From Patescibacteria group bacterium (GTDB lineage: Bacteria; Patescibacteriota; UBA1384; 2-12-FULL-50-11): DNA of 64,000 bases. The notes below the pieces were generated by a model, which was given only the letters and a program-made list of their open reading frames with translations, had not been told where the DNA came from and made no database searches. The translations under genes were made by a program, and so were the position numbers. Below, in pieces: positions 2,807 through 59,523 of this stretch (positions are counted from its first letter, which is position 1; each line of letters opens with the position of its first letter). The stretch is taken from contig JALHMV010000003.1 in the NCBI GenBank assembly GCA_022843855.1, positions 6,560-70,559 on the forward strand, in the 5' to 3' direction.

Positions 2807-4166
2807 GAAAGACCAGACAACTCAGATCAAAGGCGAGGTACTTTTCTCGAAACCGCTGCCATCGTCGAACGACGCAGAGCGATGCGTTCTCGGAGCGGTG
2901 CTGCTCGACGAGAACATAATCGCACAGGCCGCAGAGGCTCTTGAGGCGGATGATTTCTACTCGCCGTTCCATCGTCGGATATATACGGCGATGCTCTCGC
3001 TGTTCAACTCTAACCGGACCATTGACCCGATCCTGATCGCCGAGGAATTGAAGCGCGACGGCGATGCGGCAACGGTCGGCGGCATCGCGGCGATCACAAA
3101 CCTGAGCTACGGGCTTCCGCACTTCACCGACGTCGGCGAGTACCTTCAGATCATCCGGCAGAAGTCTCTACTGCGTCGGTTGATCATGTCGTGTGCGCAG
3201 ATCACAAGCGACGCTTTGGAAGAGGAAGAGGATTCGGAGCTGGTGCTCGATCGTGCCGAGCAGATGATCTTCACCCTATCGCAAGAGCGCGACCAGGGAG
3301 CGGCCGGACCGGTGCTGGCCGAGCTGCTCGCCTACGAAAGCTTGACCAAGGCTTACGAGCGGCGAAAGAGCGGCGAGATAGTTCAAGGCATCAAGACCGG
3401 CCTGCGGGATCTGGACAGCTTCCTCGCCGGCTTCAAGCAGCAGGACCTCATCATCCTCGCTGCCCGGCCATCGATGGGCAAGACGGCCGCGGCTTTGCAG
3501 TTCCTCGTCAACGCGGCTCTTGATGACCATGTCGTCTTTTTCGCGTCGCTGGAAATGAGTAAAGAGCAGGTCATCGACCGGACGATCGCTCAGATAGCTG
3601 ATATTAGCCTCTGGGGCTACGCTCACAACGTTCTAAGCGATATGCAATGGAAACAGGCCACCGATGTCTATAACACGCTCCAAGGGCGACGATTCTTCAT
3701 TGACGACACTCCTGCCATGACACCGACACAGGTGCTCGCCAAGGCCCGGAAGATCAAGACGGAGCAAAAGAAGCTCGACCTGGTCGCGGTCGACTATCTA
3801 GGCCTGATGACTTCGAGCAAACCCAGCCGCGAACGCCGCGATGACATCAGCGCCATATCTCGCGAACTGAAGGCCATCGCCAAAGAGCTCAAATGCCCGG
3901 TGATCGCCCTTTCGCAGCTCTCCCGAGCTCCCGAGAATCGCAATCCGCCGCGGCCGAAGCTTTCGGACCTGCGCGACTCCGGAGCGATCGAACAGGATGC
4001 GGACGTCGTGATCTTTCTCTATCGCCCGAGCTACTACGAGAAGAAAGAGACAGACTCGACCAATTACACGACCGAGTTCATCATCGCCAAGAACCGGAAC
4101 GGGCCGACCGACACCGTCGAGGCTATCTGGCTCAGGGACAAGGTGAAATTCGGTAACAAGAATTAG
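2796..4166 (+). CDS. dnaB: replicative DNA helicase, DnaB family
   Basis: DnaB N-terminal domain followed by a RecA-like domain with Walker A (ARPSMGKTAAALQF), DYLGLM and SQLSR motifs. ATG 2796 after GGAGGAG. Confidence 0.85.
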   Translation: MPRKKDQTTQIKGEVLFSKPLPSSNDAERCVLGAVLLDENIIAQAAEALEADDFYSPFHRRIYTAMLSLFNSNRTIDPILIAEELKRDGDAATVGGIAAITNLSYGLPHFTDVGEYLQIIRQKSLLRRLIMSCAQITSDALEEEEDSELVLDRAEQMIFTLSQERDQGAAGPVLAELLAYESLTKAYERRKSGEIVQGIKTGLRDLDSFLAGFKQQDLIILAARPSMGKTAAALQFLVNAALDDHVVFFASLEMSKEQVIDRTIAQIADISLWGYAHNVLSDMQWKQATDVYNTLQGRRFFIDDTPAMTPTQVLAKARKIKTEQKKLDLVAVDYLGLMTSSKPSRERRDDISAISRELKAIAKELKCPVIALSQLSRAPENRNPPRPKLSDLRDSGAIEQDADVVIFLYRPSYYEKKETDSTNYTTEFIIAKNRNGPTDTVEAIWLRDKVKFGNKN

Positions 4167-4182
4167 GAATGGAGGTAAATGA

Positions 4183-5184
4183 ATGTCGGCACAGTGGGTT
4201 GGATATTACTTTGACAACGACGACACGAGGATTGATGGATCGCTGCTGCTCACGCTTCTGGCGATCGCGGACCACGCGGACTCGAGCGGGCTGGCATGGC
4301 CGCGACGCAGCCTGATCGCTAAAAAGGCAAGGATCCGCGTTAGGCAGGTAACCCGGAACTTCCGAACGCTTGAAGACCTCGGTTACCTAGAAACGAAACA
4401 AGCACAAGGGCGAGGGAAACAATCGTTGTATCAACTTCTTCGCCCGGAAGTGCCGGAAACAGCCCGATCCGAAAAGGGGACACCGGTGTCCTCTTTTCCC
4501 GAGCCCGAAATAAAGGGTGTCACCGGCGACACCTTTTCTGAGGAGATAAAAGAGGTCATGGATGACACCTTTTCTGAAATAAAAGGTGTCACCGGTGACC
4601 AAGAAAAGGCGTCATGGGTGACCGAAAAAGGTGTCACCCATGACACCCCCATATATAACCATCAAGAACCGTCAATAGAACCATCACACAAACCGCGTGT
4701 GCGTGCGTCCGCGAGTGAAAAATCTTCTCCCTTTGGTGAACCGCTTAACAAACCAAAAAAGATCGGCGAGCATACGCTCGCCGAATTCAGGGAGCTGCTC
4801 GACGCAGCCGCTCCTCACTTAAAAAGCGAACATCTGGAAGATGTTCGCAAGATGTGGCTATCCGGCACGCCGCCGCTTGAGGTGATCAAGTGCTACAACG
4901 TGATGCGGATGGAATCATGGCGGACAAGCCGCGTTACGTGGCGGACCGTCGCAGCCTACCTGCCGGATTGGCAGTTCAGGCAAGAAAAGGGCATCAAGCC
5001 CGGACAGGAGCAAAACAATGGCAGAAAGAAAATTCGAACCGCAGAAGACTACGATGCAGCACTCAAGCAATGGCGGGAAGAGCGCGGACATCTTTTCGCT
5101 GGACGAGATCGAGCGAATGATGAGCTTGATCAACCGGTCACGACTCTTGCAGGGTTACTCGCTGCTCGATCCGAAGGAAGCTGA
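4183..5184 (+). CDS. putative replication initiation protein (winged-helix N-terminus; iterons inside its own coding sequence)
   Basis: N-terminal HTH/winged-helix-like segment. Lambda-O-like arrangement with a palindrome/iteron cluster inside the gene. Codon GC3 collapses after ~4980, where the next gene overlaps. Confidence 0.45.
   Translation: MSAQWVGYYFDNDDTRIDGSLLLTLLAIADHADSSGLAWPRRSLIAKKARIRVRQVTRNFRTLEDLGYLETKQAQGRGKQSLYQLLRPEVPETARSEKGTPVSSFPEPEIKGVTGDTFSEEIKEVMDDTFSEIKGVTGDQEKASWVTEKGVTHDTPIYNHQEPSIEPSHKPRVRASASEKSSPFGEPLNKPKKIGEHTLAEFRELLDAAAPHLKSEHLEDVRKMWLSGTPPLEVIKCYNVMRMESWRTSRVTWRTVAAYLPDWQFRQEKGIKPGQEQNNGRKKIRTAEDYDAALKQWREERGHLFAGRDRANDELDQPVTTLAGLLAARSEGS
4486..4660. repeat. 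cluster of GGTGTCACC / GGTGACACC-type palindromes and repeats followed by an AT-rich tract (putative origin of replication)
   Basis: Seen directly: GGACACCGGTGTCC, AAAGGGTGTCACCGGCGACACCTTTT, GACACCTTTTCTGAAATAAAAGGTGTCACCGGTGACC, AAAAGGTGTCACCCATGACACC, then ATATATAACC. Confidence 0.5.
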
Positions 5185-5506
5185 CCTGATGGCCGCGGCC
5201 TGGCTTACGGAATTCAGACGCTGGCGCATCCCCGAGTGGACCTACGAGGATCTGCTGCAGAAAACGCTCGACGCTCGGGCAAAGGATTTCTACGACGGCC
5301 GGCAGCCGAGGAGCATCGAAGCCGCTTCGCTGATGGCGATCTTCGACGGCTACTACCGCATCGAGTTCGACCACTACTGCGACGAATGCCGTGAGAACCA
5401 AGGCACGATCTACGTCGTCAATCCCGAGACGGACCGGATCGAGAAGACCTACGAGTGCAAGCACGAGACCGGATATCGGTACCCGCCGAAAGTCATCAAG
5501 CGCTAA
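5018..5506 (+). CDS. hypothetical protein with C-terminal Zn-ribbon (CDEC...CKH)
   Basis: Track ORF with GGAG upstream. High GC3 in this frame within the 166-nt overlap with the previous gene. Confidence 0.4.
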   Translation: MAERKFEPQKTTMQHSSNGGKSADIFSLDEIERMMSLINRSRLLQGYSLLDPKEADLMAAAWLTEFRRWRIPEWTYEDLLQKTLDARAKDFYDGRQPRSIEAASLMAIFDGYYRIEFDHYCDECRENQGTIYVVNPETDRIEKTYECKHETGYRYPPKVIKR

Positions 5507-6553: not shown

Positions 6554-6630
6554 CGCGAGAATGGAGCAAGGGTGGCTCGTCGGCCTCATAAGCCGGAAAT
6601 CAGGCGGTTCAACTCTGCCTCTCGCAACCA
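6554..6630 (+). tRNA. tRNA-Met (anticodon CAU), initiator-like (C1xA72 mismatch, 3' end GCAACCA with encoded CCA)
   Basis: Cloverleaf by eye: acceptor CGCGAGA/TCTCGCA, D-stem GAGC/GCTC, anticodon loop CUCAUAA, T-arm GGCGG-TTCAACT-CTGCC. Strong resemblance to the E. coli tRNA-fMet layout. Atypical 3-nt 8/9 linker and 6-nt variable loop. Coordinates +/-2. Confidence 0.55.
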
Positions 6631-11298: not shown

Positions 11299-13456
11299 GC
11301 AAGACAACTTTCAGCTATCGAACGAATTGAAGGCGGCGATCCGGAAGAATTGGAGAGCCGCCTATTCTTTGCTCTTCGGCGACGAATTCGTTGATGTCCT
11401 CGCTCCGCACCACGAGCGAACGATCCGCTGGCATTGGGCTGCCCGGCACCGCATTTGCCGCAACGAGCGGCCTTTCCGCGGCTACTACGCGGATTTCCCG
11501 ATGTGGTCACGCGGTCACATGAAATCGACGATTGCGCGGCGTCTGGCGATCATGGACGCGGTCATTGAGCTGTTCTACGGGCGAAGCGGTTACTGCCTGT
11601 ACTTCTCCGGCACGGACAACAAGACCGAGAAGCACGCTCTTTCGATAATGCAGCTCCTGCAATCGTCCGCACTCCAAAAACATGCCCCAACCCTGACGAT
11701 GGTCAAGCGGGACGCTCAGACGAACAGCAGCCGCGGATGGAAGGCCACTCTGCTCTACACCGCAAGCGGCCATGTGTTCCACTTCGGTTCGCTGCAATCG
11801 GGACTGGCAGGCGGCAACATCGACAACGTCCGGCCGAGCATCATCATCCCGGACGACATCGACGACCGTAAGCTGTCCGCCACGATCACCGAGAAGAACT
11901 TCGAAACCTTCACCAGCGAGATCCTGCCGATGGGTGCGATCGGAACTCTGACCGTTTGGGCTCAGAACCTCATCAATCGCCATTCGATCATGTACCGGAT
12001 CTACACCAACCAAGCGCGAGTGCTCGTCAATCGCCGACCGTCGCGGCCGGTGCCGGCAGTTGTCGGGCTGCTCACAGAAAAGCGGAAGACCACGGTCCTC
12101 GGGATCGAGATAGTCCGCGATGTGATCACTGCCGGAACGGCAACATGGAGGTATATGGACATAACAGCGTGCCAGGACGAGCTCGACCGCATCGGCCTGC
12201 CGGCGTTCATGCGGGAGTGCCAGCACGAGGTCGAGGGCGAGGACGAGCGACGTATGCTCCACGCCTATCGTGACGACATTCATTGCATTTCGACGAGCGA
12301 ATTCGCATCGGTCTTCGGAACGACCGCGATGCCGAAATCGTGGCGTAAGGAATGGGGAAACGATTGGGCGAGAACCAAGACGCGATTCCACGCGAACGTC
12401 GCTCTCTGGCGGACCGTCTCACCGCGGAATTCACCGCTGCCCGGCTTCGAGTTCATCTTCAACCCGATGAGCTTCAAGGCGAACGCTCAGTTCGAGGACG
12501 TCGCCGAGCGTGTTCTCGGCTGCCTCGACGAGTACGCAGTGCGGCGGATCGGCGGATCCGGCAACAAGACCTGGTCGGACCTTCGCCGGGAGGAGCTGCT
12601 TCGCATCAACTCGGCCGCTCACGCTCAGAGCTCGCTCGAACGGATCGAGCTGGAACAATCTGCTCTGGCCGAGATAATACCGCAATACTCCGAACCGCTG
12701 CTTCAAGAGCACAACGTCATCGGCGGCGTCGTCTCGCACGAGCGGGAGGACATTAGACGGGCTTACGCGACCGTGTACGGGCTTTCGTGCGTCGGTGTCA
12801 ATCCCGGGAAGTTCGGCGGCGTAGAGCAGATCAACCGGGCGATGGCGGTCGACACCACCGAGGACCATCCGTTCCGGCCGGGCGTCAAAGGCTTCACACG
12901 CTGGTTCGTCGTCGTGCCGGACGACACCACCGTCAAGCCGCGGCTGGTCAACGGACTGCTCGTCTATCCGCCGAAGCCGTACCCGAAGAACATGGCTGCC
13001 GAAGATCTGCACGACGACGACCTGTTTCGCCGGCAGATGATCGAGTGGGAAATGGCAGAGCCGAAGCTGCTCGAATCCGGCGAGAAGATCGACGAGCCGG
13101 TCAAGGCGATGGACGACTTCGGCAACGAGCTGCAAATGATGTACGTCAACGGCGGACTCGACAACGAACCGCTGTCCATTCGCGAGGAGTACGAGCTGCT
13201 GGTCGAGCAGTCACCGGTGCAGGGCGTGATCGATGCGACCACCGAGCGAACGCGGTTCACCCGAATCCAACAGCTCGAAAAACTCGAGATCCGCGATCGG
13301 GCTCTTCGCCAGCTGCGGCATCGCCACGGCGACGATGCCGACGAGGACCTGACGCGGCAGATCCACTTCGACGACGACGATCCGGGGCCGGCCAACCCGC
13401 TCGACGAGGATGTCGATTTCGACGGCGATTCGGGGCCATGGTTCCAACCCCGTTGA
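11189..13456 (+). CDS. putative terminase large subunit (755 aa)
   Basis: Position after the TerS-like gene. Deviant P-loop-like SRGHMKST and a hydrophobic IIIPDD Walker-B-like segment. High GC3 from the ATG at 11189. Alternative TTG start at 11327. Confidence 0.4.
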   Translation: MQRYAQQLLGNSKGFLARSFVAALEGKNLGTAVQANKQDNFQLSNELKAAIRKNWRAAYSLLFGDEFVDVLAPHHERTIRWHWAARHRICRNERPFRGYYADFPMWSRGHMKSTIARRLAIMDAVIELFYGRSGYCLYFSGTDNKTEKHALSIMQLLQSSALQKHAPTLTMVKRDAQTNSSRGWKATLLYTASGHVFHFGSLQSGLAGGNIDNVRPSIIIPDDIDDRKLSATITEKNFETFTSEILPMGAIGTLTVWAQNLINRHSIMYRIYTNQARVLVNRRPSRPVPAVVGLLTEKRKTTVLGIEIVRDVITAGTATWRYMDITACQDELDRIGLPAFMRECQHEVEGEDERRMLHAYRDDIHCISTSEFASVFGTTAMPKSWRKEWGNDWARTKTRFHANVALWRTVSPRNSPLPGFEFIFNPMSFKANAQFEDVAERVLGCLDEYAVRRIGGSGNKTWSDLRREELLRINSAAHAQSSLERIELEQSALAEIIPQYSEPLLQEHNVIGGVVSHEREDIRRAYATVYGLSCVGVNPGKFGGVEQINRAMAVDTTEDHPFRPGVKGFTRWFVVVPDDTTVKPRLVNGLLVYPPKPYPKNMAAEDLHDDDLFRRQMIEWEMAEPKLLESGEKIDEPVKAMDDFGNELQMMYVNGGLDNEPLSIREEYELLVEQSPVQGVIDATTERTRFTRIQQLEKLEIRDRALRQLRHRHGDDADEDLTRQIHFDDDDPGPANPLDEDVDFDGDSGPWFQPR

Positions 13457-13515
13457 CATTTTCGCGGACTCTGGTAAATTGAACCTCAGCCACCTGCTTG
13501 CTACGAGCGAGCTTA

Positions 13516-13719
13516 ATGATCCGTCCCATAACCTGCCCGAACTGCAAAAAAGTTTCCGCCTGGTACGACGATGTTCAATGCTGCCTGATCGAGATCGAGA
13601 TGCCGCCCGGAATCATGGTTTTCGGTGCATATTTCACATGTCAGAGCTGTTCGGCCCGGTTCTCGTTCAACGGCTTGAAGCTGAAAAAGCTTCGCCAGCA
13701 GAGGAAAAGACACGAGTGA
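13516..13719 (+). CDS. small Zn-ribbon protein (CPNC...CQSC)
   Basis: ATG at 13516. In frame with track ORF 13498..13719. Confidence 0.4.
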   Translation: MIRPITCPNCKKVSAWYDDVQCCLIEIEMPPGIMVFGAYFTCQSCSARFSFNGLKLKKLRQQRKRHE

Positions 13720-13722
13720 GTA

Positions 13723-13831
13723 TTGACGTTCTCGCAAAAATGACGTAAATTTTTCGCAAATTTGAAGCGGCCGTACGGCCCGATCCGGATGAGAGCTCCG
13801 CGACGCTAATACAGCGTTGCGGAGCTTTTTT
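13723..13831 (+). promoter_or_regulatory. copy A of a thrice-repeated element: -35/-10-like (TTGACG-N17-TAAATT), conserved box TGAAGCGGCCGTACGGCCCGAnCCGGATGAnAGCTCCGC, terminator-like hairpin, T-run
   Basis: Alignment of the three copies (13763-13831, 33508-33575, 57277-57342) shows compensatory stem changes. Confidence 0.5.
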
Positions 13832-13862
13832 AATTGGCCAACACACACAGGAGATTTTAACG

Positions 13863-14165
13863 ATGTCTGAAACCTATCACGTTGCAACACAGCCTATCCG
13901 CTCAGGAGTCCGTGGCGGCATCAAGTTCGGCGAGCGCCAAGGAATGCTCGTGGATGGCGACCTGACCAGCGAGGCCAACGCCATTGCTGCGGTCGAGGCC
14001 GACCAGGCGACCCGCCACACCGCGGAGAACAACTTCGCACAACGCGTGATCCCGTCGCTCGAAGCTGCCGACGAGTTCGTGCCCGGCTTCACGTCCGGGG
14101 GCAGTATCGACGCGATCGATGTGATCACCGAGGAGGGCGACGAGCACCAGACGCTCCACTTCTAG
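13863..14165 (+). CDS. hypothetical protein (first gene after element A)
   Basis: Track ORF with AGGAG RBS. Confidence 0.4.
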   Translation: MSETYHVATQPIRSGVRGGIKFGERQGMLVDGDLTSEANAIAAVEADQATRHTAENNFAQRVIPSLEAADEFVPGFTSGGSIDAIDVITEEGDEHQTLHF

Positions 14166-14166
14166 G

Positions 14167-14577
14167 ATGGGAAAGCTTGCGGAATGGTTATGGACACGGC
14201 GGCTCTGCGAGGAACAGGCGGCAAGGATCAGCCATCTTGACGCCCAGAACGCAAAACTGCGCGAACGCCTCTACCAAGAGATCGACGCGAACCGCCGACG
14301 CGAGGACGCTCTCGTCGGAGCCATAACGCAAGCAGCCCTGGGCGAGCGGAGCGTAACTCCATTCCACGCTCCGCTCGCCAACGTACCCGATGAGCCACCG
14401 GATCCCGAAGACCTCGAACTCGACGAAATAGCGCCGAACGGGGTGCCGGAAGTGGTGATCCAGCAACGCATAAAACAGTACGTCATCGCCGCCGCGGAGC
14501 GGGGAGCGCCGTACCCGCCCGACGCGATCGAGCAGCTACGCGAAAAGCTTAGGACCTGCCCGCCCGAGGACATTTGA
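14167..14577 (+). CDS. hypothetical protein
   Basis: Track ORF. Confidence 0.4.
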   Translation: MGKLAEWLWTRRLCEEQAARISHLDAQNAKLRERLYQEIDANRRREDALVGAITQAALGERSVTPFHAPLANVPDEPPDPEDLELDEIAPNGVPEVVIQQRIKQYVIAAAERGAPYPPDAIEQLREKLRTCPPEDI

Positions 14578-17120
14578 TGCAGCCACAAGCACGTGCCATG
14601 AATCTCGCACCGGTCAAGCCGCTCACCAAATTGGGCGAGGCGGTAAAGCCGCGGGAATACTCCAATCTGGCCGAGTTCATCCGGGAGCTGCACCTGCACT
14701 TCAAGAACAAGAACGTCCGCGTCCGGCACGAGGTCGCCGAGCAAGGCCGCATGATGGCGAATCTGCGGTCCGGCAAGCTTGAGCTGCGTCGCGATCCGCT
14801 CTACGGCACCCTGACGCTCCTCGAACCGCTTCCGCACCAGCCGCGAAGCGATATGCACGTTTACCCGCTCGCGCAGACCAATTCCAGCCAGCTGACGAGC
14901 GTCTGGACGCTCTCTCGGCCTCGCGTGGTCCCGCGGCTGTTCGGCGACAGCGACCGGGCACAGATCCAGACCGCTCTCGTCCAGCAGGTGATCGATCACT
15001 ACGCGACCGAGTACCTCCACGACGAGATGTTCAATCAGCGGGAATCGCTCTCGATGATGGACTACGGCACCGCAGTTTACGGCGTCTATTACGACCTGAC
15101 GCTGAACAAGATCACATCCGTCCTGCCGGTCGTCGCAGACACCAACAAGAACATATTTCCGGGCTATCAGTACTGCATGTCATGCCCGATGGAAGGGACG
15201 CCAAAGGATTTCAAGATCAAGGGCGAAATGCTGCCCCGGTGTCCGCAGTGCGGCACCTACAACGTCTCGAACGCCCTGGCACCGCAGACCGCCAAAGTGA
15301 CCGAGGTCATTGGAGGCCGGGAGTTCGAACAAGGCGACATCCTGATCCAGCTCGAACCCGTTCCCGCGTTCAATTGGGACATGCGCAAGCTGATCCACGA
15401 ATCGTCCTACGTGCAGCAGGCGATCGAGGTCCCGCACCGGCTGCTCGAATCGCTGCTCAATGTGCCGATCGAGCATATCTCGCCGGACGCGGAGCACGGC
15501 ATCCGCGTCATGAACGACCTCGGCAGCCGCGGCGGATCGCAGCCCGGGCTCGGCCGCGAGAATCTGCTCGGGAACACTGATCAGAATCAGGAAGGCACGC
15601 TCGGCTGGCAGGAATGGTATCGCCCGGAGATCTACGCCGGAGTGCGGTTTACATCCGACGAAAAGACACTATCCGGCGAAACCATCAAGGCCGGAGTGCC
15701 GCTCGAAGAATACTTCAAAGAAAGCCTTGGCGTATTGCTGATCGGCGACGATCTGGTCATCGGAGCGTTCGACGAGAAGTGCCCGCTATTCTCATCCGTC
15801 TATCACATTCAAAGCCACTCGGGTTACGGCAAGGGCACCGGCGATGCGATAGAGATCGCTGCGGACCTGACGCAGGCACACTCGGCAGCTCTCGCCACGA
15901 TCAAGCGATACGGTGCCGGAGGCGGCTTCGTCTATGACAAGCGGGCGCTGACGCGGCAGGAAGCCAAACGCATCCTCAAGCCGGGCGGAATGGCCGGTGC
16001 CGACCTTGCTAAATCGGGAGCCGCACGCGTCGAGGACCTGATCCACAGCGTCACGACCAACGAGGTCAATCAATCGAACATGGTGATGATCGCCCAGCTC
16101 GTCAACATGCTCAACATGGCGTTCCAGACCACCGACTTCACGCAGGGTGTCGCTGACAGCCGCGTCAAGGTCGATACGCTCGGCGGACAGCAGCTCCTTC
16201 AAGCTCAGCAGCAGCAACGGACCGCAGCCCCGCTCAGGCTCAAGGGTTACGCCTGGGCGATGGTGCTCGAAGAGGCGGTTTCCTGCTTCCGGAAGCACGT
16301 TCGCATACCGCTCTACTTCATGACCGGCGACAACTTCAAGCTGACCAGCGGGAAGTACATCAGCGGAGAAGATCTTCCCAAGCGTGTCCGCTGCACGTTC
16401 GTTCGCGATTCGGAGATCCCGAACAACGAGCTGACCCGCCAGCAAAACCTGACGACGATGATGCAGGCCGCTCCCGGATTCGGTGTTCCGTTCGTCCAGC
16501 TGATGCAGATGGAACCGCGGATCGCCTCGTGGTTCGCCGATGAGTACAAGACCGACCTCCCGATCGCAGACTACGGCGAACTGCTGATGCGGTGCCGTGA
16601 ACGGCTTGATCAGGTGATCGAGCTCGCCGGCGAGGAAGAACAGGTCGCAATGCTGACCGGATTCGCTCCCGATCCGCAAATGTCGGTCGAACGCATCCTT
16701 AGCCAGCTATCGCCGCCGCTCGATGCCTCCGAGCTGTACCACGTGATCAAGGCGCAGATCCTCTCCGATTACCTCGACAACGACGAGGTCAAGGAATGGT
16801 CGCCGCTGACCCAAATGGCGGTCCGCGCACTGATCATGCGCCACTACCAGCTTGATCGTGATTTCCGCTACGGGCTGCAGGTGCTCGAAGCACAGGGGCA
16901 GGCAGGCGTTACCGGTGCCGCGATGGCAATGGCCGCTCCCGCCATGCAGGCGGAACGCGACCAGGCGACCGAGGATGAGGCCATGGGCCGGGCTGCCGAC
17001 GTCATCGGCGACGAAGAAGCCCACCTCCGGGAACAGGAAGCCGCCGATGCCGATCATGGCCGTGCGGTCGAACTTGAACAAATCAAACAGAGGTCGAAGG
17101 GTTCGGCCTCAAAGGAGTAA
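14577..17120 (+). CDS. large virion protein, portal candidate (848 aa; contains a CxxC...CxxC Zn-ribbon)
   Basis: Gene order TerS-TerL-X-scaffold-capsid. TGATG coupling to the previous gene. No diagnostic motif recognised. Confidence 0.3.
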   Translation: MQPQARAMNLAPVKPLTKLGEAVKPREYSNLAEFIRELHLHFKNKNVRVRHEVAEQGRMMANLRSGKLELRRDPLYGTLTLLEPLPHQPRSDMHVYPLAQTNSSQLTSVWTLSRPRVVPRLFGDSDRAQIQTALVQQVIDHYATEYLHDEMFNQRESLSMMDYGTAVYGVYYDLTLNKITSVLPVVADTNKNIFPGYQYCMSCPMEGTPKDFKIKGEMLPRCPQCGTYNVSNALAPQTAKVTEVIGGREFEQGDILIQLEPVPAFNWDMRKLIHESSYVQQAIEVPHRLLESLLNVPIEHISPDAEHGIRVMNDLGSRGGSQPGLGRENLLGNTDQNQEGTLGWQEWYRPEIYAGVRFTSDEKTLSGETIKAGVPLEEYFKESLGVLLIGDDLVIGAFDEKCPLFSSVYHIQSHSGYGKGTGDAIEIAADLTQAHSAALATIKRYGAGGGFVYDKRALTRQEAKRILKPGGMAGADLAKSGAARVEDLIHSVTTNEVNQSNMVMIAQLVNMLNMAFQTTDFTQGVADSRVKVDTLGGQQLLQAQQQQRTAAPLRLKGYAWAMVLEEAVSCFRKHVRIPLYFMTGDNFKLTSGKYISGEDLPKRVRCTFVRDSEIPNNELTRQQNLTTMMQAAPGFGVPFVQLMQMEPRIASWFADEYKTDLPIADYGELLMRCRERLDQVIELAGEEEQVAMLTGFAPDPQMSVERILSQLSPPLDASELYHVIKAQILSDYLDNDEVKEWSPLTQMAVRALIMRHYQLDRDFRYGLQVLEAQGQAGVTGAAMAMAAPAMQAERDQATEDEAMGRAADVIGDEEAHLREQEAADADHGRAVELEQIKQRSKGSASKE

Positions 17121-18889: not shown

Positions 18890-20230
18890 ATGGCAAATCC
18901 GACTTTGTTGCAGAACTATTCGGCCGCAGTTAAGGCCGACATGCGCAATAAGATCATCCAGCAGAAGACGCAAAAGGCCGTCACATTAGCTACCTTCAAA
19001 TCCGGTTCGGGTGCTCGCAACGAATCGGGTGCGATGGTGGGGCTGGAGATCCCGTACAAGCGTGGCGTCACGTTTGGTGAAACCGCTTTGAACCCGCTTC
19101 GGCGTGTGACCTCGTTCGAACCGATGGTCTCGCCGAAGACCGCGAAGATGTTCGTCGGCCTGACGTACTCAGGCTTTACGGTGGAATCTGAATGGTTCCA
19201 CGAAAAGGACGCTGCTCGCAACAAGCTGCCCGAGGGCGAAAGCGACTTTCAGCGCGATGTCGTGCTGACCTACTATCAGCACCAGAATTGGTACTCGATC
19301 GGACCCGGCACCGGGATCATCGGCTACTTCACGACCAGCGGCGGCAGCGGCCTCCATTCGTTCGCGTTCGATAACACCGCTCGCGGACGTTCGAAGGGTT
19401 CGCTTCGTGTCGCCGTGTCGCCGGGAACGAGCTCTGAGGAGCGTGTGCTCTATCAGGCGGTCGACGAGGCGACCAACACGGTGACCGCGACGTTCTACGT
19501 CGTATCGAAGCCGTCGTCCGTGACCGCTCAGGTCATCGTGCTTTCCGGTGCGATCACTGCCGGCAACGGTGTTGTTCGCTACGGACATTACAACCGCGTA
19601 ATGTACGGGCTCGGCTACCACATCAACCACGTTCCGCGGACCTCGTACCAGGGTGCGGACACCACGGTCGACGACTTCCTGAACTCGATCGGCATCGATT
19701 GCGACGGCGGACCGATGACGGCAACGCTGCTCGACAGCGGCAAGCTGGCCATGGAGGTCGAGGCGAACGATAGCACGGCGCATAAGAACAAAATGTTCCA
19801 CATGACGCACGGCCATCACCGATCCCTCGCCGCCTACGGCTACGATCTTCGCACCTACAATGCCGAAAAGGGCGACGCCATGAAGTCTTTTGGCGTTCCG
19901 CGGTATTACGAGGACGAGGACTCGATCTGGGCCCGCGACGAGGACATGGAAGACGCCTACCTCTACGGCCGTCACCGCTCCGACTATTGGGAGTATCGGC
20001 AGGCAGCGATCGATGAAGTTACGAACGGAAAAGAGCAGTATCCGGGCGTCAACCTCGTTGGTTCGACCGAGCACTACCGCAATTGGGGTGAAGCGAAGAA
20101 CATCGCATGGGACGCTCGCGGCGAAAAAGGCGACAACACCGGCAACGGTAAGCCGAACTCGTCGATCGTGTTCTATAACCTCGAAATTCCGGCGACGAAT
20201 CAGGTTGCCCGAGGACGTTCACTCGTCTAA
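18890..20230 (+). CDS. major capsid protein candidate (446 aa)
   Basis: Strong RBS AAAGGAG. Followed by the strongest terminator in the window. Position after the scaffold-like gene. Confidence 0.4.
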   Translation: MANPTLLQNYSAAVKADMRNKIIQQKTQKAVTLATFKSGSGARNESGAMVGLEIPYKRGVTFGETALNPLRRVTSFEPMVSPKTAKMFVGLTYSGFTVESEWFHEKDAARNKLPEGESDFQRDVVLTYYQHQNWYSIGPGTGIIGYFTTSGGSGLHSFAFDNTARGRSKGSLRVAVSPGTSSEERVLYQAVDEATNTVTATFYVVSKPSSVTAQVIVLSGAITAGNGVVRYGHYNRVMYGLGYHINHVPRTSYQGADTTVDDFLNSIGIDCDGGPMTATLLDSGKLAMEVEANDSTAHKNKMFHMTHGHHRSLAAYGYDLRTYNAEKGDAMKSFGVPRYYEDEDSIWARDEDMEDAYLYGRHRSDYWEYRQAAIDEVTNGKEQYPGVNLVGSTEHYRNWGEAKNIAWDARGEKGDNTGNGKPNSSIVFYNLEIPATNQVARGRSLV

Positions 20231-20244
20231 TCCTCCACTGGACG

Positions 20245-20276
20245 CAGGAGTACCCGATGGTGCTCCTGCATTTTTG
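20245..20276 (+). terminator. rho-independent terminator (stem CAGGAGTACC / GGTGCTCCTG with one G-U, loop CGAT, then CATTTTTG)
   Basis: Seen in sequence 15 nt after the capsid-candidate stop. Confidence 0.55.
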
Positions 20277-33410: not shown

Positions 33411-33498
33411 CAGGGCGCCAAGGACTACTCGATAGCGGGGATCTAGCCCCGCGAAACCGTAAACTCGTTGCGTTTCACGCGGTGAAGTGCTATTTTTC

Positions 33499-33575
33499 TT
33501 GACAACCTGAAGCGGCCGTACGGCCCGAACCGGATGAAAGCTCCGCAGCTCAAATTTGAGCTGCGGAGCTTTTTC
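33499..33575 (+). promoter_or_regulatory. copy B of the conserved box + terminator-like hairpin element (with TTGACA just upstream)
   Basis: See copy A. Hairpin AAAGCTCCGCAGCTCA-AATT-TGAGCTGCGGAGCTTTTT. Confidence 0.5.
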
Positions 33576-33590
33576 TCATTGGAGTCACAG

Positions 33591-34067
33591 ATGGGGAAAA
33601 AAAAGACCACCACGACAACTAAAAACACGCACGGTTACGTGCCGTACCAGGACACTCAGGACACCAAGTGGGCCCGCGGGCTTGTCCGCGAAGGTGCTGA
33701 CTTCACCTCTCCGCTGGCATTTGCCTACGGCCAGGCCGAGAACGACATCGACAATCAGGTGTTCGAGCAAGACCTGCCCGAGCCTGCCCGCAACAAGGTC
33801 AAAGCCGGCCAGCTCTTCAATATCCGGATGCAGAAGGGGGCAGCGCTCTCCGATGCTCGATCGCGGGAGCACATGGCCAAGACCAGCGGGGCAATGAACC
33901 TCGCCAACATGACGCAGGACAAGTTCGTCCAGACGGGCGGCACGCAAACGACCGTCCAGCCGTTCGATTGGGGCGGAATGCTCACTCAAGGTTTGATGGG
34001 CGGAGCGATGCTGGCGTCGGCGATACCGACCGGAGGGGCGTCGGTCGGCGCGGCCGGAGCTGCGTAA
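33591..34067 (+). CDS. hypothetical protein with Gly-rich hydrophobic C-terminus (possible internal/ejection protein)
   Basis: ATG 33591 in the conserved context GGAGTCACAGATG, shared with the gene after copy C. Confidence 0.4.
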   Translation: MGKKKTTTTTKNTHGYVPYQDTQDTKWARGLVREGADFTSPLAFAYGQAENDIDNQVFEQDLPEPARNKVKAGQLFNIRMQKGAALSDARSREHMAKTSGAMNLANMTQDKFVQTGGTQTTVQPFDWGGMLTQGLMGGAMLASAIPTGGASVGAAGAA

Positions 34068-57241: not shown

Positions 57242-57345
57242 CAAGGAACGGCTAAAGGTTTATTTTATAGCCAATTTGAAGCGGCCGTACGGCCCAAACC
57301 GGATGAAAGCTCCGCAACCTTACCAAGGTTGCGGAGCTTTTTACT
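57238..57345 (+). promoter_or_regulatory. copy C of the conserved element (TTGACA-N17-TATTTT, conserved box, hairpin GCTCCGCAACC-TTACCAA-GGTTGCGGAGC, T-run). Overlaps the giant gene stop.
   Basis: See copy A. Confidence 0.5.
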
Positions 57346-57366
57346 TTTACCACCACGGAGTCACAG

Positions 57367-57693
57367 ATGCCAAACTCACGCACCGCAACCATTACGGCCG
57401 GATTTTCCGCCTCAGAATATAAACCACTTTTAACACTTCTCGGTTCATCGCTTGCCTCAAAGACACGCCGCTACCGCGACGTCAAGCTTGAGAACAAAGG
57501 CGACACTGACCTTTACATCGCCTCAATGCAGGCCGGATCAAGTCCGGCGACGCCGACCGCGGGCGACCGCAAGACGATCGAGGCAGGCGATGCCGAATTC
57601 CTCGGCGAGATCGAGACCGACCAGCTCTTTGTCCTGACCGCGAACGAAAGCGGCAACAACCAACTCGAGTTCGTCGGCGAACCGCAGAACTGA
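57367..57693 (+). CDS. hypothetical protein (first gene of lysis block)
   Basis: ATG in the GGAGTCACAGATG context. Confidence 0.4.
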   Translation: MPNSRTATITAGFSASEYKPLLTLLGSSLASKTRRYRDVKLENKGDTDLYIASMQAGSSPATPTAGDRKTIEAGDAEFLGEIETDQLFVLTANESGNNQLEFVGEPQN

Positions 57694-58460
57694 TGATCAA
57701 GAAACACGACAATCAGGCGAACATCCTTGCGTGGCAGGGCTTTCTGAACACGCAGGGCGAGGCATTGCGTGCCGATGGCCGATGGGGGCCGCTGACCAAG
57801 GCGGCGACCGGCCGCTTTCAGATGAAGCACTCGCTGACGCCAGACGGCATTGTCGGCGAGGACACGCTTTCGGTTGCGATGCAGAATGGGTTTGAGGGGT
57901 TTGCGGCGCCGATCAAGCCGATAAGCCGGAAGGCCCTGATCTGTATCTCTGCCGGCCATACCAACACGGCAGGCCGCGACCAGGGCGTTGCCGCCAACGG
58001 GCTCATCGAAGGCCGCGAAGCGGTCAAGATCCGTGACCGCGTGGCCGACCTCGTCCGACAGAAAGGCTTTGCAGTGATCGAGGACGGAGCGGACGGCGTC
58101 AATGATCCGCTCTCAAAAGCGCTAGACCTCGTGCCGCTTGCCAAGTTCGCGATCGAATTCCATTTCAACGCGGGTCCGCCGACCGCCACCGGGATCGAAG
58201 TACTTTCGCTTCCGAACAACAGGCCTCGCTCGCAGGATATCGCTGGAGCTCTGGCGTCGTCGCTCGGGCTCAGGCTTCGCGGAGCGAATGGCTGGAAGTC
58301 CGACACCGAAGGGCAGCACTCGCGTCTCGCGTTCTGCCGGGCGGGCGGGCTGGTCGTCGAAACATGCTTTCTCACCAACACCGGGGATGTGGCCGCCTAT
58401 CAGGCGAACTTCGAGAAGATGTGCGTCGCCCTCGCCGACGCCATCGAACGATGTGTGTAA
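57693..58460 (+). CDS. endolysin: peptidoglycan-binding domain + N-acetylmuramoyl-L-alanine amidase
   Basis: N-terminal PG_binding_1-like WQGFLN...DGRWGPLT...DGIVGEDT. Amidase_3-like ICISAGHTNTAGRDQGV...E... Confidence 0.65.
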   Translation: MIKKHDNQANILAWQGFLNTQGEALRADGRWGPLTKAATGRFQMKHSLTPDGIVGEDTLSVAMQNGFEGFAAPIKPISRKALICISAGHTNTAGRDQGVAANGLIEGREAVKIRDRVADLVRQKGFAVIEDGADGVNDPLSKALDLVPLAKFAIEFHFNAGPPTATGIEVLSLPNNRPRSQDIAGALASSLGLRLRGANGWKSDTEGQHSRLAFCRAGGLVVETCFLTNTGDVAAYQANFEKMCVALADAIERCV

Positions 58461-59138: not shown

Positions 59139-59291
59139 ATGAGCCGACACGACAAAGAAATGGCAATGATCGTAGCGATGTTCGTATTGGTCGCACTTGC
59201 CGTCTTTGCGGTCTGGTTCTCGGTTGTAATGATCGCGGATGCCCTTGATCACGACAAGGCACATCCGCCGAGTGCTTGGAAGGAGAAATGA
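59139..59291 (+). CDS. small single-pass membrane protein
   Basis: MAMIVAMFVLVALAVFAVWFSVVMI hydrophobic helix. Start uncertain. Confidence 0.3.
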   Translation: MSRHDKEMAMIVAMFVLVALAVFAVWFSVVMIADALDHDKAHPPSAWKEK

Positions 59292-59292
59292 T

Positions 59293-59523
59293 ATGGAACA
59301 TAACTACCAACCGCTTTTGGTCGTGCTCGGCACTATCGTCCGGCACTTTCTAACCATCGTTGCTGGATGGCTGTTCGCCTACGGCGTGACGCAGGAGCAG
59401 GCGGACGCGGCGATCGACGCGAGCGTCGCGATCGTGCTTTCGCTGGTCACGACCGCCATAGCCCTCGCGTGGTCCTATATCTCGAAACGGAATGCGTTCG
59501 AAACACCAACGGAGAATCAATGA
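59293..59523 (+). CDS. putative holin (77 aa, two predicted TM helices)
   Basis: AGGAGA RBS. Hydrophobic segments LLVVLGTIVRHFLTIVAGWLFAYGV and VAIVLSLVTTAIALAW. In the lysis block. Confidence 0.45.
   Translation: MEHNYQPLLVVLGTIVRHFLTIVAGWLFAYGVTQEQADAAIDASVAIVLSLVTTAIALAWSYISKRNAFETPTENQ

Follow-up and report, generated by a model that had tools for sequence, protein, structure and literature searches.

A promoter, leader hairpin and terminator cassette at the head of three gene blocks in a novel phage genome, and a candidate protein partner

How read-through of terminators sets the timing of late phage genes is known chiefly from the lambdoid coliphages. In the PR'-qut-tR' arrangement, a constitutive host-type promoter leads within ~70-200 nucleotides (nt) to an intrinsic terminator, which precedes the late genes; a short RNA is the default product, and the regulator gene Q stands directly before PR'-tR'. 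The same logic may operate in the lineage described here, which has almost no recognisable proteins. The stretch analysed (64,000 nt of contig JALHMV010000003.1, hereafter the window) represents a novel phage, most of whose proteins belong to no Pfam or PHROG family, and it contains three copies of a cassette in which a sigma-70-type promoter, a conserved leader box and a terminator hairpin precede a gene block. The 39-nt box, TGAAGCGGCCGTACGGCCCRANCCGGATGANAGCTCCGC, has exactly three matches, all on the forward strand, at 13763-13801, 33508-33546 and 57277-57315. It is plausible, though just short of probable, that these cassettes form a factor-dependent antitermination gate that acts on the leader RNA and controls three late operons.

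The resemblance to the lambdoid Q system lies in this promoter-proximal terminator before late genes, and also in the position of a candidate regulator gene, which is found directly upstream of a cassette as Q is before PR'-tR'. However, there are three cassettes per genome here rather than one, neither between the promoter hexamers nor next to them is a DNA site conserved, and the promoter spacers are unconserved among the copies. Among orthologues, anything from 12 to 44 nt separates the promoter from the hairpin, unlike the fixed geometry of the DNA binding and sigma-dependent pause elements in the Q system, and the conserved parts show RNA-like behaviour. Searches of ~60 reading frames of the window with Pfam, PHROGs or both revealed no Q-family protein, although divergent proteins could escape detection. 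An earlier sequence-only reading of this stretch had likened the element to PR'-qut-tR'; given the missing Q-family protein, the variable distance between the -10 hexamer and the hairpin and the RNA-like conserved parts, the cassette does not belong to that class.

In the N/nut system of lambda, a small hairpin and an adjacent linear motif are found in the nascent RNA upstream of terminators. The leaders described here have a similar layout, and the candidate factor is likewise a small protein with an Arg/Lys-rich helix. The features that recall boxB are a well-supported hairpin, termed SL1, and the predicted basic C-terminal helix of the candidate protein, which might at most be supposed to bind one another. 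Conversely, boxA (CGCUCUUUA-like) is absent from all leaders read, in both the window copies and the relatives, and the hairpin abuts the terminator. The cassette also serves late operons and, in two further elements (L129 and L134), early-type operons, and the candidate is a Zn-ribbon protein without homology to N.

Anatomy of the leader cassette

Each cassette consists, in order, of a sigma-70-type promoter, 10-11 unconserved nt, the box, a hairpin, T5-6, and 15-30 nt with GGAG before an ATG. The box comprises SL1 (a GC hairpin), a purine-rich linker ending in GGAUGA(A/G)AG, and the outer 5' arm of the terminator. The three forward-strand copies proposed from the sequence are borne out, as a degenerate pattern of the box fits all three with no mismatches and has no match in 100 shuffles; the perfect palindrome claimed within the box, GGCCGTACGGCC, is also present, as 12 bp at approximately +11 to +22 of the three promoters. 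Among the window copies, 36 of the 39 box positions are identical, while the promoter spacers and inner stems are unrelated. Two of the three variable positions fall in the unpaired linker between SL1 and the motif, and the third is an A/G that pairs with a U. Because the box is nearly identical while spacers and inner stems have diverged, the leader sequence itself, from about +5, appears to be under selection, and not hairpin stability alone.

In copy 1, promoter P1 (TTGACG-N17-TAAATT, 13723-13751) has a predicted start at ~13758-13760. The box (13763-13801) contains SL1 at 13769-13780 (GGCC GUAC GGCC), the linker, GGAUGAGAG and the outer 5' arm of the terminator, whose 17-bp hairpin and T6 occupy 13791-13831 (core 13795-13825, -24.4 kcal/mol). 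A ribosome binding site (RBS), GGAG, and an ATG at 13863 (together 13850-13865) begin the first gene of the head/tail block, 13863-14165. In copy 2, promoter P2 (33468-33496) is formed by TTGCGT (33468-33473), an N17 spacer with TG at 33488-33489, and TATTTT (33491-33496), and its predicted start is ~33504-33505. The box at 33508-33546, with SL1 at 33514-33525, leads into a 17-bp hairpin and T5 at 33536-33574 (core 33540-33569, -26.1 kcal/mol), and GGAGTCACAGATG at 33581-33593 supplies the RBS and start (ATG 33591) of a block with genes of 158, 250, 519 and 6951 amino acids (aa). Copy 3 has promoter P3 (TTGACA-N17-TATTTT, 57238-57266; predicted start ~57273-57274), its box at 57277-57315 with SL1 at 57283-57294, and a 17-bp hairpin and T5 at 57305-57342 (core 57309-57337, -22.6 kcal/mol), followed by GGAGTCACAGATG at 57357-57369 with the ATG (57367) of the lysis block. 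All of these features lie on the forward strand. The strong-RBS genes described at 13863, 33591 and 57367, 15-30 nt after the U-run, are therefore all present, as is the start context said to be shared by two of them, GGAGTCACAGATG at copies 2 and 3.

The -10 hexamer of every window copy ends 10-11 nt 5' of the box and 16-17 nt 5' of SL1, and the box begins ~4 nt past the predicted transcription start (~13758, 33504 and 57273). A promoter before each copy had been proposed, and one is found in all twelve members of the cassette family considered below; it was the accompanying description, a TTGAC(A/G) hexamer and a distance of 10-35 nt, that was imprecise. For copy 2, the TTGACA adjacent to the box, at 33499-33504, has no -10 hexamer at the right spacing, and the proper promoter is TTGCGT-N17-TATTTT.

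The terminator arms AGCTCCGC/GCGGAGCT are kept across the three copies. The outer hairpin arms AGCUCCGC/GCGGAGCU are part of the box, while the inner stem and loop vary by copy; the inner stems GACGCT/AGCGTT (with one G-U), AGCTCA/TGAGCT and AACCTT/AAGGTT all pair in full. These GC-rich hairpins of 17 bp, followed directly by T5-6, have the form of intrinsic terminators, and a scan of both strands for hairpins with a T-run ranks the three cassette terminators (-26.1, -24.4 and -22.6 kcal/mol) at the top of the forward strand. The predicted fold of the leader consists of a 4-bp SL1 (GGCC-GUAC-GGCC), the linker and the 17-bp terminator helix, with GA(A/G)AG pairing with the U-run, and the three leaders have minimum free energies of -36 to -40 kcal/mol (z of -5.4 to -7.1). 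Conserved outer arms, compensated inner stems and a T-run had all been described correctly. The compensatory changes within the genome were, however, also offered as an argument for a functional RNA structure, and in this respect they show only that a terminator hairpin is kept, as it would be in any terminator. The informative covariation is that of SL1 and the outer stem across phages, and not that of the inner stems within this genome.

The AUG inside the linker motif gets called as a gene start, which is a warning for annotation. Gene callers begin the gene that follows the cassette at the AUG within GGAUGAAAG, and thus translate through the terminator hairpin, at 33534 in the window and in three other loci (L142, 4721-5254; L147, 6159; L151, 8668). 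The real start of the gene downstream of copy 2 is the ATG after the RBS, at 33591, and not the AUG at 33534. A leader peptide initiated at the AUG of GGAUGA was considered and rejected: it has no Shine-Dalgarno sequence, neither its frame nor its length is consistent, and L112, L138, L140 and L151 lack the AUG.

Conservation of the cassette in related phages

The portal protein of the window phage has 28 homologues with 42-48% identity. Its gene, 14574-17120, was assigned through a weak SU10_portal match of one homologue, P0014. Comparison of the DNA around ten portal homologues (five loci are duplicates: L114-116 of L113, L139 of L138, and L148 of L147) shows that the orthologous site, which follows the terminase region and is succeeded by a conserved 100-aa gene and then the portal gene, carries the cassette in seven of nine related lineages (L112, L117, L138, L140, L146, L147/L148 and L151), or in eight of ten when the window phage is included. 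The possibility that related phages lack the element, raised in the sequence-only reading as a point that would count against it, is thereby answered. That reading had also proposed RNA folding and a covariance-model search, and these recover a structured, covarying element: a model, R1, built from a seed of 11 sequences, finds all members with E ≤ 2e-7 in a restricted search, including L151, which lies outside the seed, with 3e-8. The model detects no copy in the 64-kb window beyond the three, and no cassette in L113-116, L141 or L145. By portal identity these cassette-less loci represent two lineages, one formed by L113 and L141 (81%) and the other by L145.

A promoter of the form TTGNNN-N17/18-TANNNT lies within 80 nt upstream in 12/12 members, compared with 1.4% of random 80-nt windows. 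Eight members have 12-20 nt between the -10 hexamer and SL1, and four have 38-44 nt. SL1 occurs with nine different arm sequences, every one of them perfectly paired over 4-6 bp, with swaps among G-C, C-G and U-A at three of four stem positions and with unconserved loops of 3-6 nt. The purine-rich linker ends in GGAUGA(A/G)AG or in one of the variants GGAUUAAAG, GAGUGAAAG, GAACGAAAG and GGUGAGAG, and RRRYGARAG is the linear motif conserved across members. In the terminator, 95.5% of cells in the outer 12 pairs are paired across 11 sequences, and 7/12 pairs have changed on both sides; none of 500 shuffles pairs as well, and pairing falls to 29-61% in slid registers. The SL1 and terminator sequences of the relatives thus differ from those of the window, yet stay paired. 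Downstream of the hairpin, each member has a U-run of 4-8 followed by an RBS and a co-oriented gene. Since both the loop size of SL1 and its distance from the promoter vary, these comparisons argue for recognition at the RNA level rather than of duplex DNA.

A degenerate motif scan of metagenome contigs yielded 18 matches, among which L129 and L134 are true members; by its design the pattern also admits ordinary terminators and coding sequence, and these make up the remainder. In L129 and L134, the cassette lies between a promoter and a gene for a small Xis/AlpA-like helix-turn-helix (HTH) protein, divergent from repressor-like and HEXXH-protease-like genes. By these gene identities, which come from reading the translations, L129 and L134 represent a different, prophage-like mobile element with the cassette at an early-type operon. 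In L134, the frames on both strands between the repressor-like gene and the cassette (3744-4134) give low-complexity peptides, rich in Pro, Ser and Leu on one strand and in Gly, Arg and Glu on the other, which implies ~390 bp of repetitive DNA.

Elsewhere the element was not encountered. Rfam holds nothing similar at threshold, and at permissive settings copy 1 matches nothing beyond hairpin look-alikes below threshold; GenBank phages and PLSDB plasmids contain nothing similar to the cassette; and scans of IMG/VR with the 18-mer core, the degenerate motif, the portal protein and the portal alignment gave chance coding matches or nothing. A 2-kb probe had no blastn match among 50,697 GenBank phage records. 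No counterparts of copies 2 and 3 could be located in the relatives, as the 519-aa protein has no homologues other than identical copies and the giant protein has patchy domain matches only. The locus with the best match to the giant protein, L149/150, is an unrelated phage without the element.

A proposed antitermination gate and its alternatives

Gene assignments bear out the proposal that the copies open the head, internal-protein/giant-gene and lysis blocks. In none of the three copies is there a promoter-like sequence in the 15-30 nt, including the RBS, between the U-run and the ATG. With no promoter after the U-run and all genes co-oriented, every polymerase that expresses one of these blocks must cross a terminator. 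Furthermore, because every member has its promoter 5' of the terminator, as in lambda PR'-tR' and in attenuators, read-through is favoured over a scheme in which transcription stops and restarts. Antitermination, which had been suggested from the sequence, thus stands as the most economical reading of an arrangement without a promoter between terminator and gene, while control of the read-through itself is a step beyond this. The hairpins are predicted to be efficient terminators, and regulated read-through is the favoured reading.

In such a gate, host RNA polymerase would start at the sigma-70-type promoter and produce a leader of ~70 nt, made up of SL1, the purine-rich linker ending in GGAUGA(A/G)AG and, followed by its U-run, a highly stable terminator hairpin. 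By default, transcription would stop at the terminator and a small RNA would be released. The head/tail, internal-protein/giant-gene and lysis blocks would be expressed only on read-through, by polymerases from the local promoter or from upstream. A phage-encoded factor would recognise SL1 and the linker motif, which adjoins or extends into the terminator's 5' arm, and would either block folding of the terminator or make the polymerase resistant to termination, such that one factor could open three operons together. The best candidate for this factor would be a 67-aa Zn-ribbon protein, encoded with its own promoter immediately upstream of copy 1.

The 67-aa open reading frame (ORF; 13516-13719, forward strand) lies between the terminase gene and copy 1, and is preceded by a sigma-70-like promoter, TTGACA-N16-TAAATT with TG, at 13453-13480 (10/12 match). 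The protein has four Cys, the tail KLKKLRQQRKRHE and an Arg/Lys-rich C-terminal helix, and its AlphaFold2 model (predicted local distance difference test score, pLDDT, of 92) shows four strands and a helix at residues 53-66. Homologues were detected by tblastn and profile search in all eight element-bearing phage lineages (the window phage, L112, L117, L138/139, L140, L146, L147 and L151). None was found in L113, L141 and L145, which make up the two cassette-less lineages, nor in L129 or L134. Eight lineages therefore have both protein and cassette and two have neither (Fisher exact ~0.02, with phylogeny ignored), and the Zn-ribbon gene is always upstream of the cassette and co-oriented with it, at ~50 nt to 2.5 kb. 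Synteny, as of Q before PR', and co-occurrence together make the protein a candidate trans-acting antitermination factor by analogy. The Zn-ribbon family numbers 23 representatives. In L147, ~900 bp without a called gene (4466-5360) separate the Zn-ribbon region from the cassette and contain a strong promoter-like site and several hairpins.

Small Zn-finger proteins are familiar as phage regulators: P2 Ogr and P4 Delta are late activators, and Mu Com is an RNA-binding translational activator. The candidate resembles these in being a four-Cys protein of the 60-100-aa class encoded beside late genes that it possibly controls. It differs in having no sequence, Pfam or fold similarity to them, and the sites of Ogr lie upstream of the promoter and not in the leader.

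Several observations weigh against a dedicated antitermination factor. The search for a Q-like or other antiterminator that had been proposed with the sequence-only reading revealed no known antiterminator family among ~60 reading frames of the window, and the 67-aa protein itself has no Pfam, PDB or fold match. Two related lineages have the same genes without the cassette, which is thus dispensable for the gene order as such. The prophage-type L129 and L134 have the cassette without a Zn-ribbon gene in the 4-6 kb of DNA examined. Moreover, the co-occurrence comprises ten lineages, and inheritance of one variable module could be its cause. A further point concerns an alternative hairpin, SL2, a helix of 3-6 bp. 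In every member, the purines that immediately precede YGARAG could form it by pairing with the start of the terminator 5' arm. SL2 has loops of 7-8 nt, (A)YGARAGN, is mutually exclusive with the terminator, and in most members is predicted to form in the nascent RNA while the 3' arm is still missing. A shuffle test gives P values of 0.02-0.4 per lineage (~0.01-0.02 when combined by Fisher's method), and the composition-preserving energy test gives a combined p of 0.12, so that SL2 is statistically insecure. That SL2 might serve as an anti-terminator hairpin is offered from these predicted folds as a hypothesis only.

An overlap between a conserved leader and the 5' arm of a terminator is also known from the BglG/LicT ribonucleic antiterminator (RAT) and ANTAR systems, in which RNA-binding antiterminators compete with folding of the terminator and to which the weak SL2 adds a further likeness. 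However, the loops here do not follow the ANTAR hexaloop rule (AxxGxx), with 3-6 nt in SL1 and 7-8 nt in SL2, and the cassette leaders contain no RAT consensus. No protein with a PRD or ANTAR domain was found in the protein scans of the window.

Type I-C and I-G CRISPR repeats have the 3' end GGAUUGAAAC, and repeat stems covary while the handle is fixed. The cassette's GC hairpin followed by GGAU(U)GAAAG (GGAUGAAAG) recalls these repeat ends. It is therefore conceivable that the cassettes are genes for an abundant trans-acting small RNA of ~70 nt, either a decoy that mimics CRISPR repeats, as in the solitary repeat units (SRUs) of the RNA anti-CRISPRs (Racr), or a regulator of host or phage mRNAs, with the three copies reflecting dosage and the operon position reflecting genome compaction. 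A promoter followed by a terminator after ~70 nt is indeed the anatomy of a small RNA gene. SRUs in viral genomes sit immediately downstream of a promoter (PMC10651486), a position that the cassette shares, and in both cases a short hairpin RNA directly after a promoter occurs in phages and prophages, possibly in several copies (PMC10651486). Yet the exact 18-nt core has no multi-copy, array-like match in 185,579 species genomes (its 110 matches are all single sites, with coding sequence for a GPYGRF-type peptide in the flanks inspected), and there are no array-like matches in plasmids or phages; a full-text literature search for the motif as a CRISPR repeat returned irrelevant matches only. 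No matching CRISPR array was thus found in these searches. In relatives the putative handle breaks down to GAGUGAAAG, GAACGAAAG and GGUGAGAG and stands at a variable 3-9 nt from the hairpin, and where a repeat unit would have spacer-like sequence, the cassette has a long perfect hairpin. For an antisense regulator, the best target in the window is a 12-mer, ATCCGGTTCGGG, at 19000-19011 in a 446-aa gene, opposite the box linker of copy 2, with ~0.1 such matches expected by chance. Against either form of small RNA, the location at the start of operons is fixed, with the cassette held at one orthologous operon boundary across phages whose portals are ~45-59% identical, and the strong terminators must still be passed for essential proteins to be made. 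A small RNA gene is thus considered unlikely.

Equally low probability attaches to passive punctuation, in which a leaky terminator, or 3' stabiliser, would close the upstream operon, the promoter would re-initiate transcription, enough polymerase would leak through to serve the downstream genes and SL1 would be a 5' stabiliser, all without a dedicated factor. Ordinary punctuation does exist in this genome, as illustrated by a terminator without a box at 20244-20270, and two related lineages have no cassette at all. However, the promoter is 5' of the terminator in 12/12 members, the wrong order for stop and restart; stability alone is insufficient to explain near-identical loop and linker bases between diverged flanks; and efficient termination is predicted for hairpins of 17-22 bp followed by U5-8.

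Very unlikely, by comparison, is a factor-independent antiterminator RNA of the put (HK022) or canT (Tn916) type, in which the leader would modify its own polymerase. Such cis-acting RNAs have precedent in mobile elements (PMC11658703) and, as here, are promoter-proximal, structured and associated with insulating terminators (PMC11658703); in the present case the structured RNA stands directly before the terminator. The known RNAs are, however, larger, with several helices, no element-encoded protein and distant terminators, whereas here secure support extends to a single short hairpin of 4-6 bp, the terminator is adjacent, and there is no similarity to any Rfam family. Above all, each polymerase that arrives at the terminator has just made the leader, and a factor-free RNA such as put, one of the analogies in the sequence-only reading, would render the conserved terminator pointless. 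Less probable again is a DNA operator, in which the palindrome GGCCGTACGGCC would bind a dimeric phage protein, either a repressor or the 615-aa ParB-like protein in the manner of KorB or N15 SopB silencing, to control the three promoters. A perfect 12-bp palindrome just past the start of three promoters, in a phage that encodes ParB-family proteins, fits this. But in the orthologues the arms stay complementary while their sequences change freely and a variable 3-6 nt separate them, as in an RNA hairpin and unlike a site for a dimer, and conservation runs through the non-palindromic linker into the terminator arm. The same variation between the arms disfavours a parS site. Two other readings were rejected: a CsrA-type GGA site, since there is a single site, outside any loop and degenerate in relatives, and a phage-RNA-polymerase or N4-type hairpin promoter, since no such polymerase was detected and a rigid promoter would not be expected to vary in the lengths of its loop and linker.

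A factor-dependent antitermination gate on the leader RNA would thus combine a new RNA leader motif with what is likely a new small protein partner, on a known regulatory principle. In its most specific form, which is possible but doubtful, it would be a two-part system not described so far, in which Zn-ribbon proteins of 67-126 aa with an Arg/Lys-rich C-terminal helix bind a leader RNA composed of a covarying GC hairpin and RRRYGARAG overlapping the terminator 5' arm, and so open several late operons at once in phages of an uncultivated lineage that probably infects Acidobacteria. If true, the antiterminator and RNA pair would amount to a compact, portable promoter-terminator switch, and model R1 would provide a sequence signature for late-operon starts in metagenomic phage genomes.

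The phage genome around the cassettes

The long ORFs of the window all lie on the forward strand. Recognisable genes encode a DnaB helicase, an HTH_36 protein, the 615-aa ParB-like protein, small and large terminase subunits, tail-fibre-like proteins and a methyltransferase. Copy 1 opens the head/tail block, copy 2 the block that ends in the giant gene, and copy 3 the lysis block, in which an amidase endolysin (57693-58460) and a holin (59239-59523) are encoded. The giant 6951-aa ORF (36386-57241) contains ddrB-ParB, SNF2/ResIII helicase and methyltransferase domains, and its product has only patchy similarity to other giant "polyvalent" phage and plasmid proteins. The terminator at 20244-20270, which lacks both box and promoter, follows directly after the 446-aa gene (18890-20230) and, at -21.3 kcal/mol, is the fourth strongest on the forward strand.

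The same sequence is present in identical form in activated-carbon metagenome assemblies, and the Pyrinomonadaceae labels of the metagenome-assembled genomes that contain two portal homologues hint at an Acidobacteria host. An identical copy of the 519-aa protein (P0030, 34824-36383) is recorded on contigs of up to 759 kb, and the relatives L138 and L140 lie within contigs of 180 kb and 928 kb; members of this phage group may exist as prophages, or may be mis-binned.

A ~22-nt palindromic unit (AAAAGGTGTCACCGGTGACACCTTTT-like), repeated five to six times at intervals of 33-45 bp, forms an iteron-like array at 4468-4650. The array lies inside the 333-aa HTH_36 ORF (4183-5184) and is a candidate replication origin within the initiator gene. 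A tRNA gene at 6555-6626 is the sole Rfam match at gathering threshold in the window. In three relatives, inteins are found in large ORFs at the position of the large terminase gene (L117, 2285-7783; L146, 4145-7465; L151, 1901-5413), which accordingly measure 1832, 1106 and 1170 aa, compared with 755 aa in the window.

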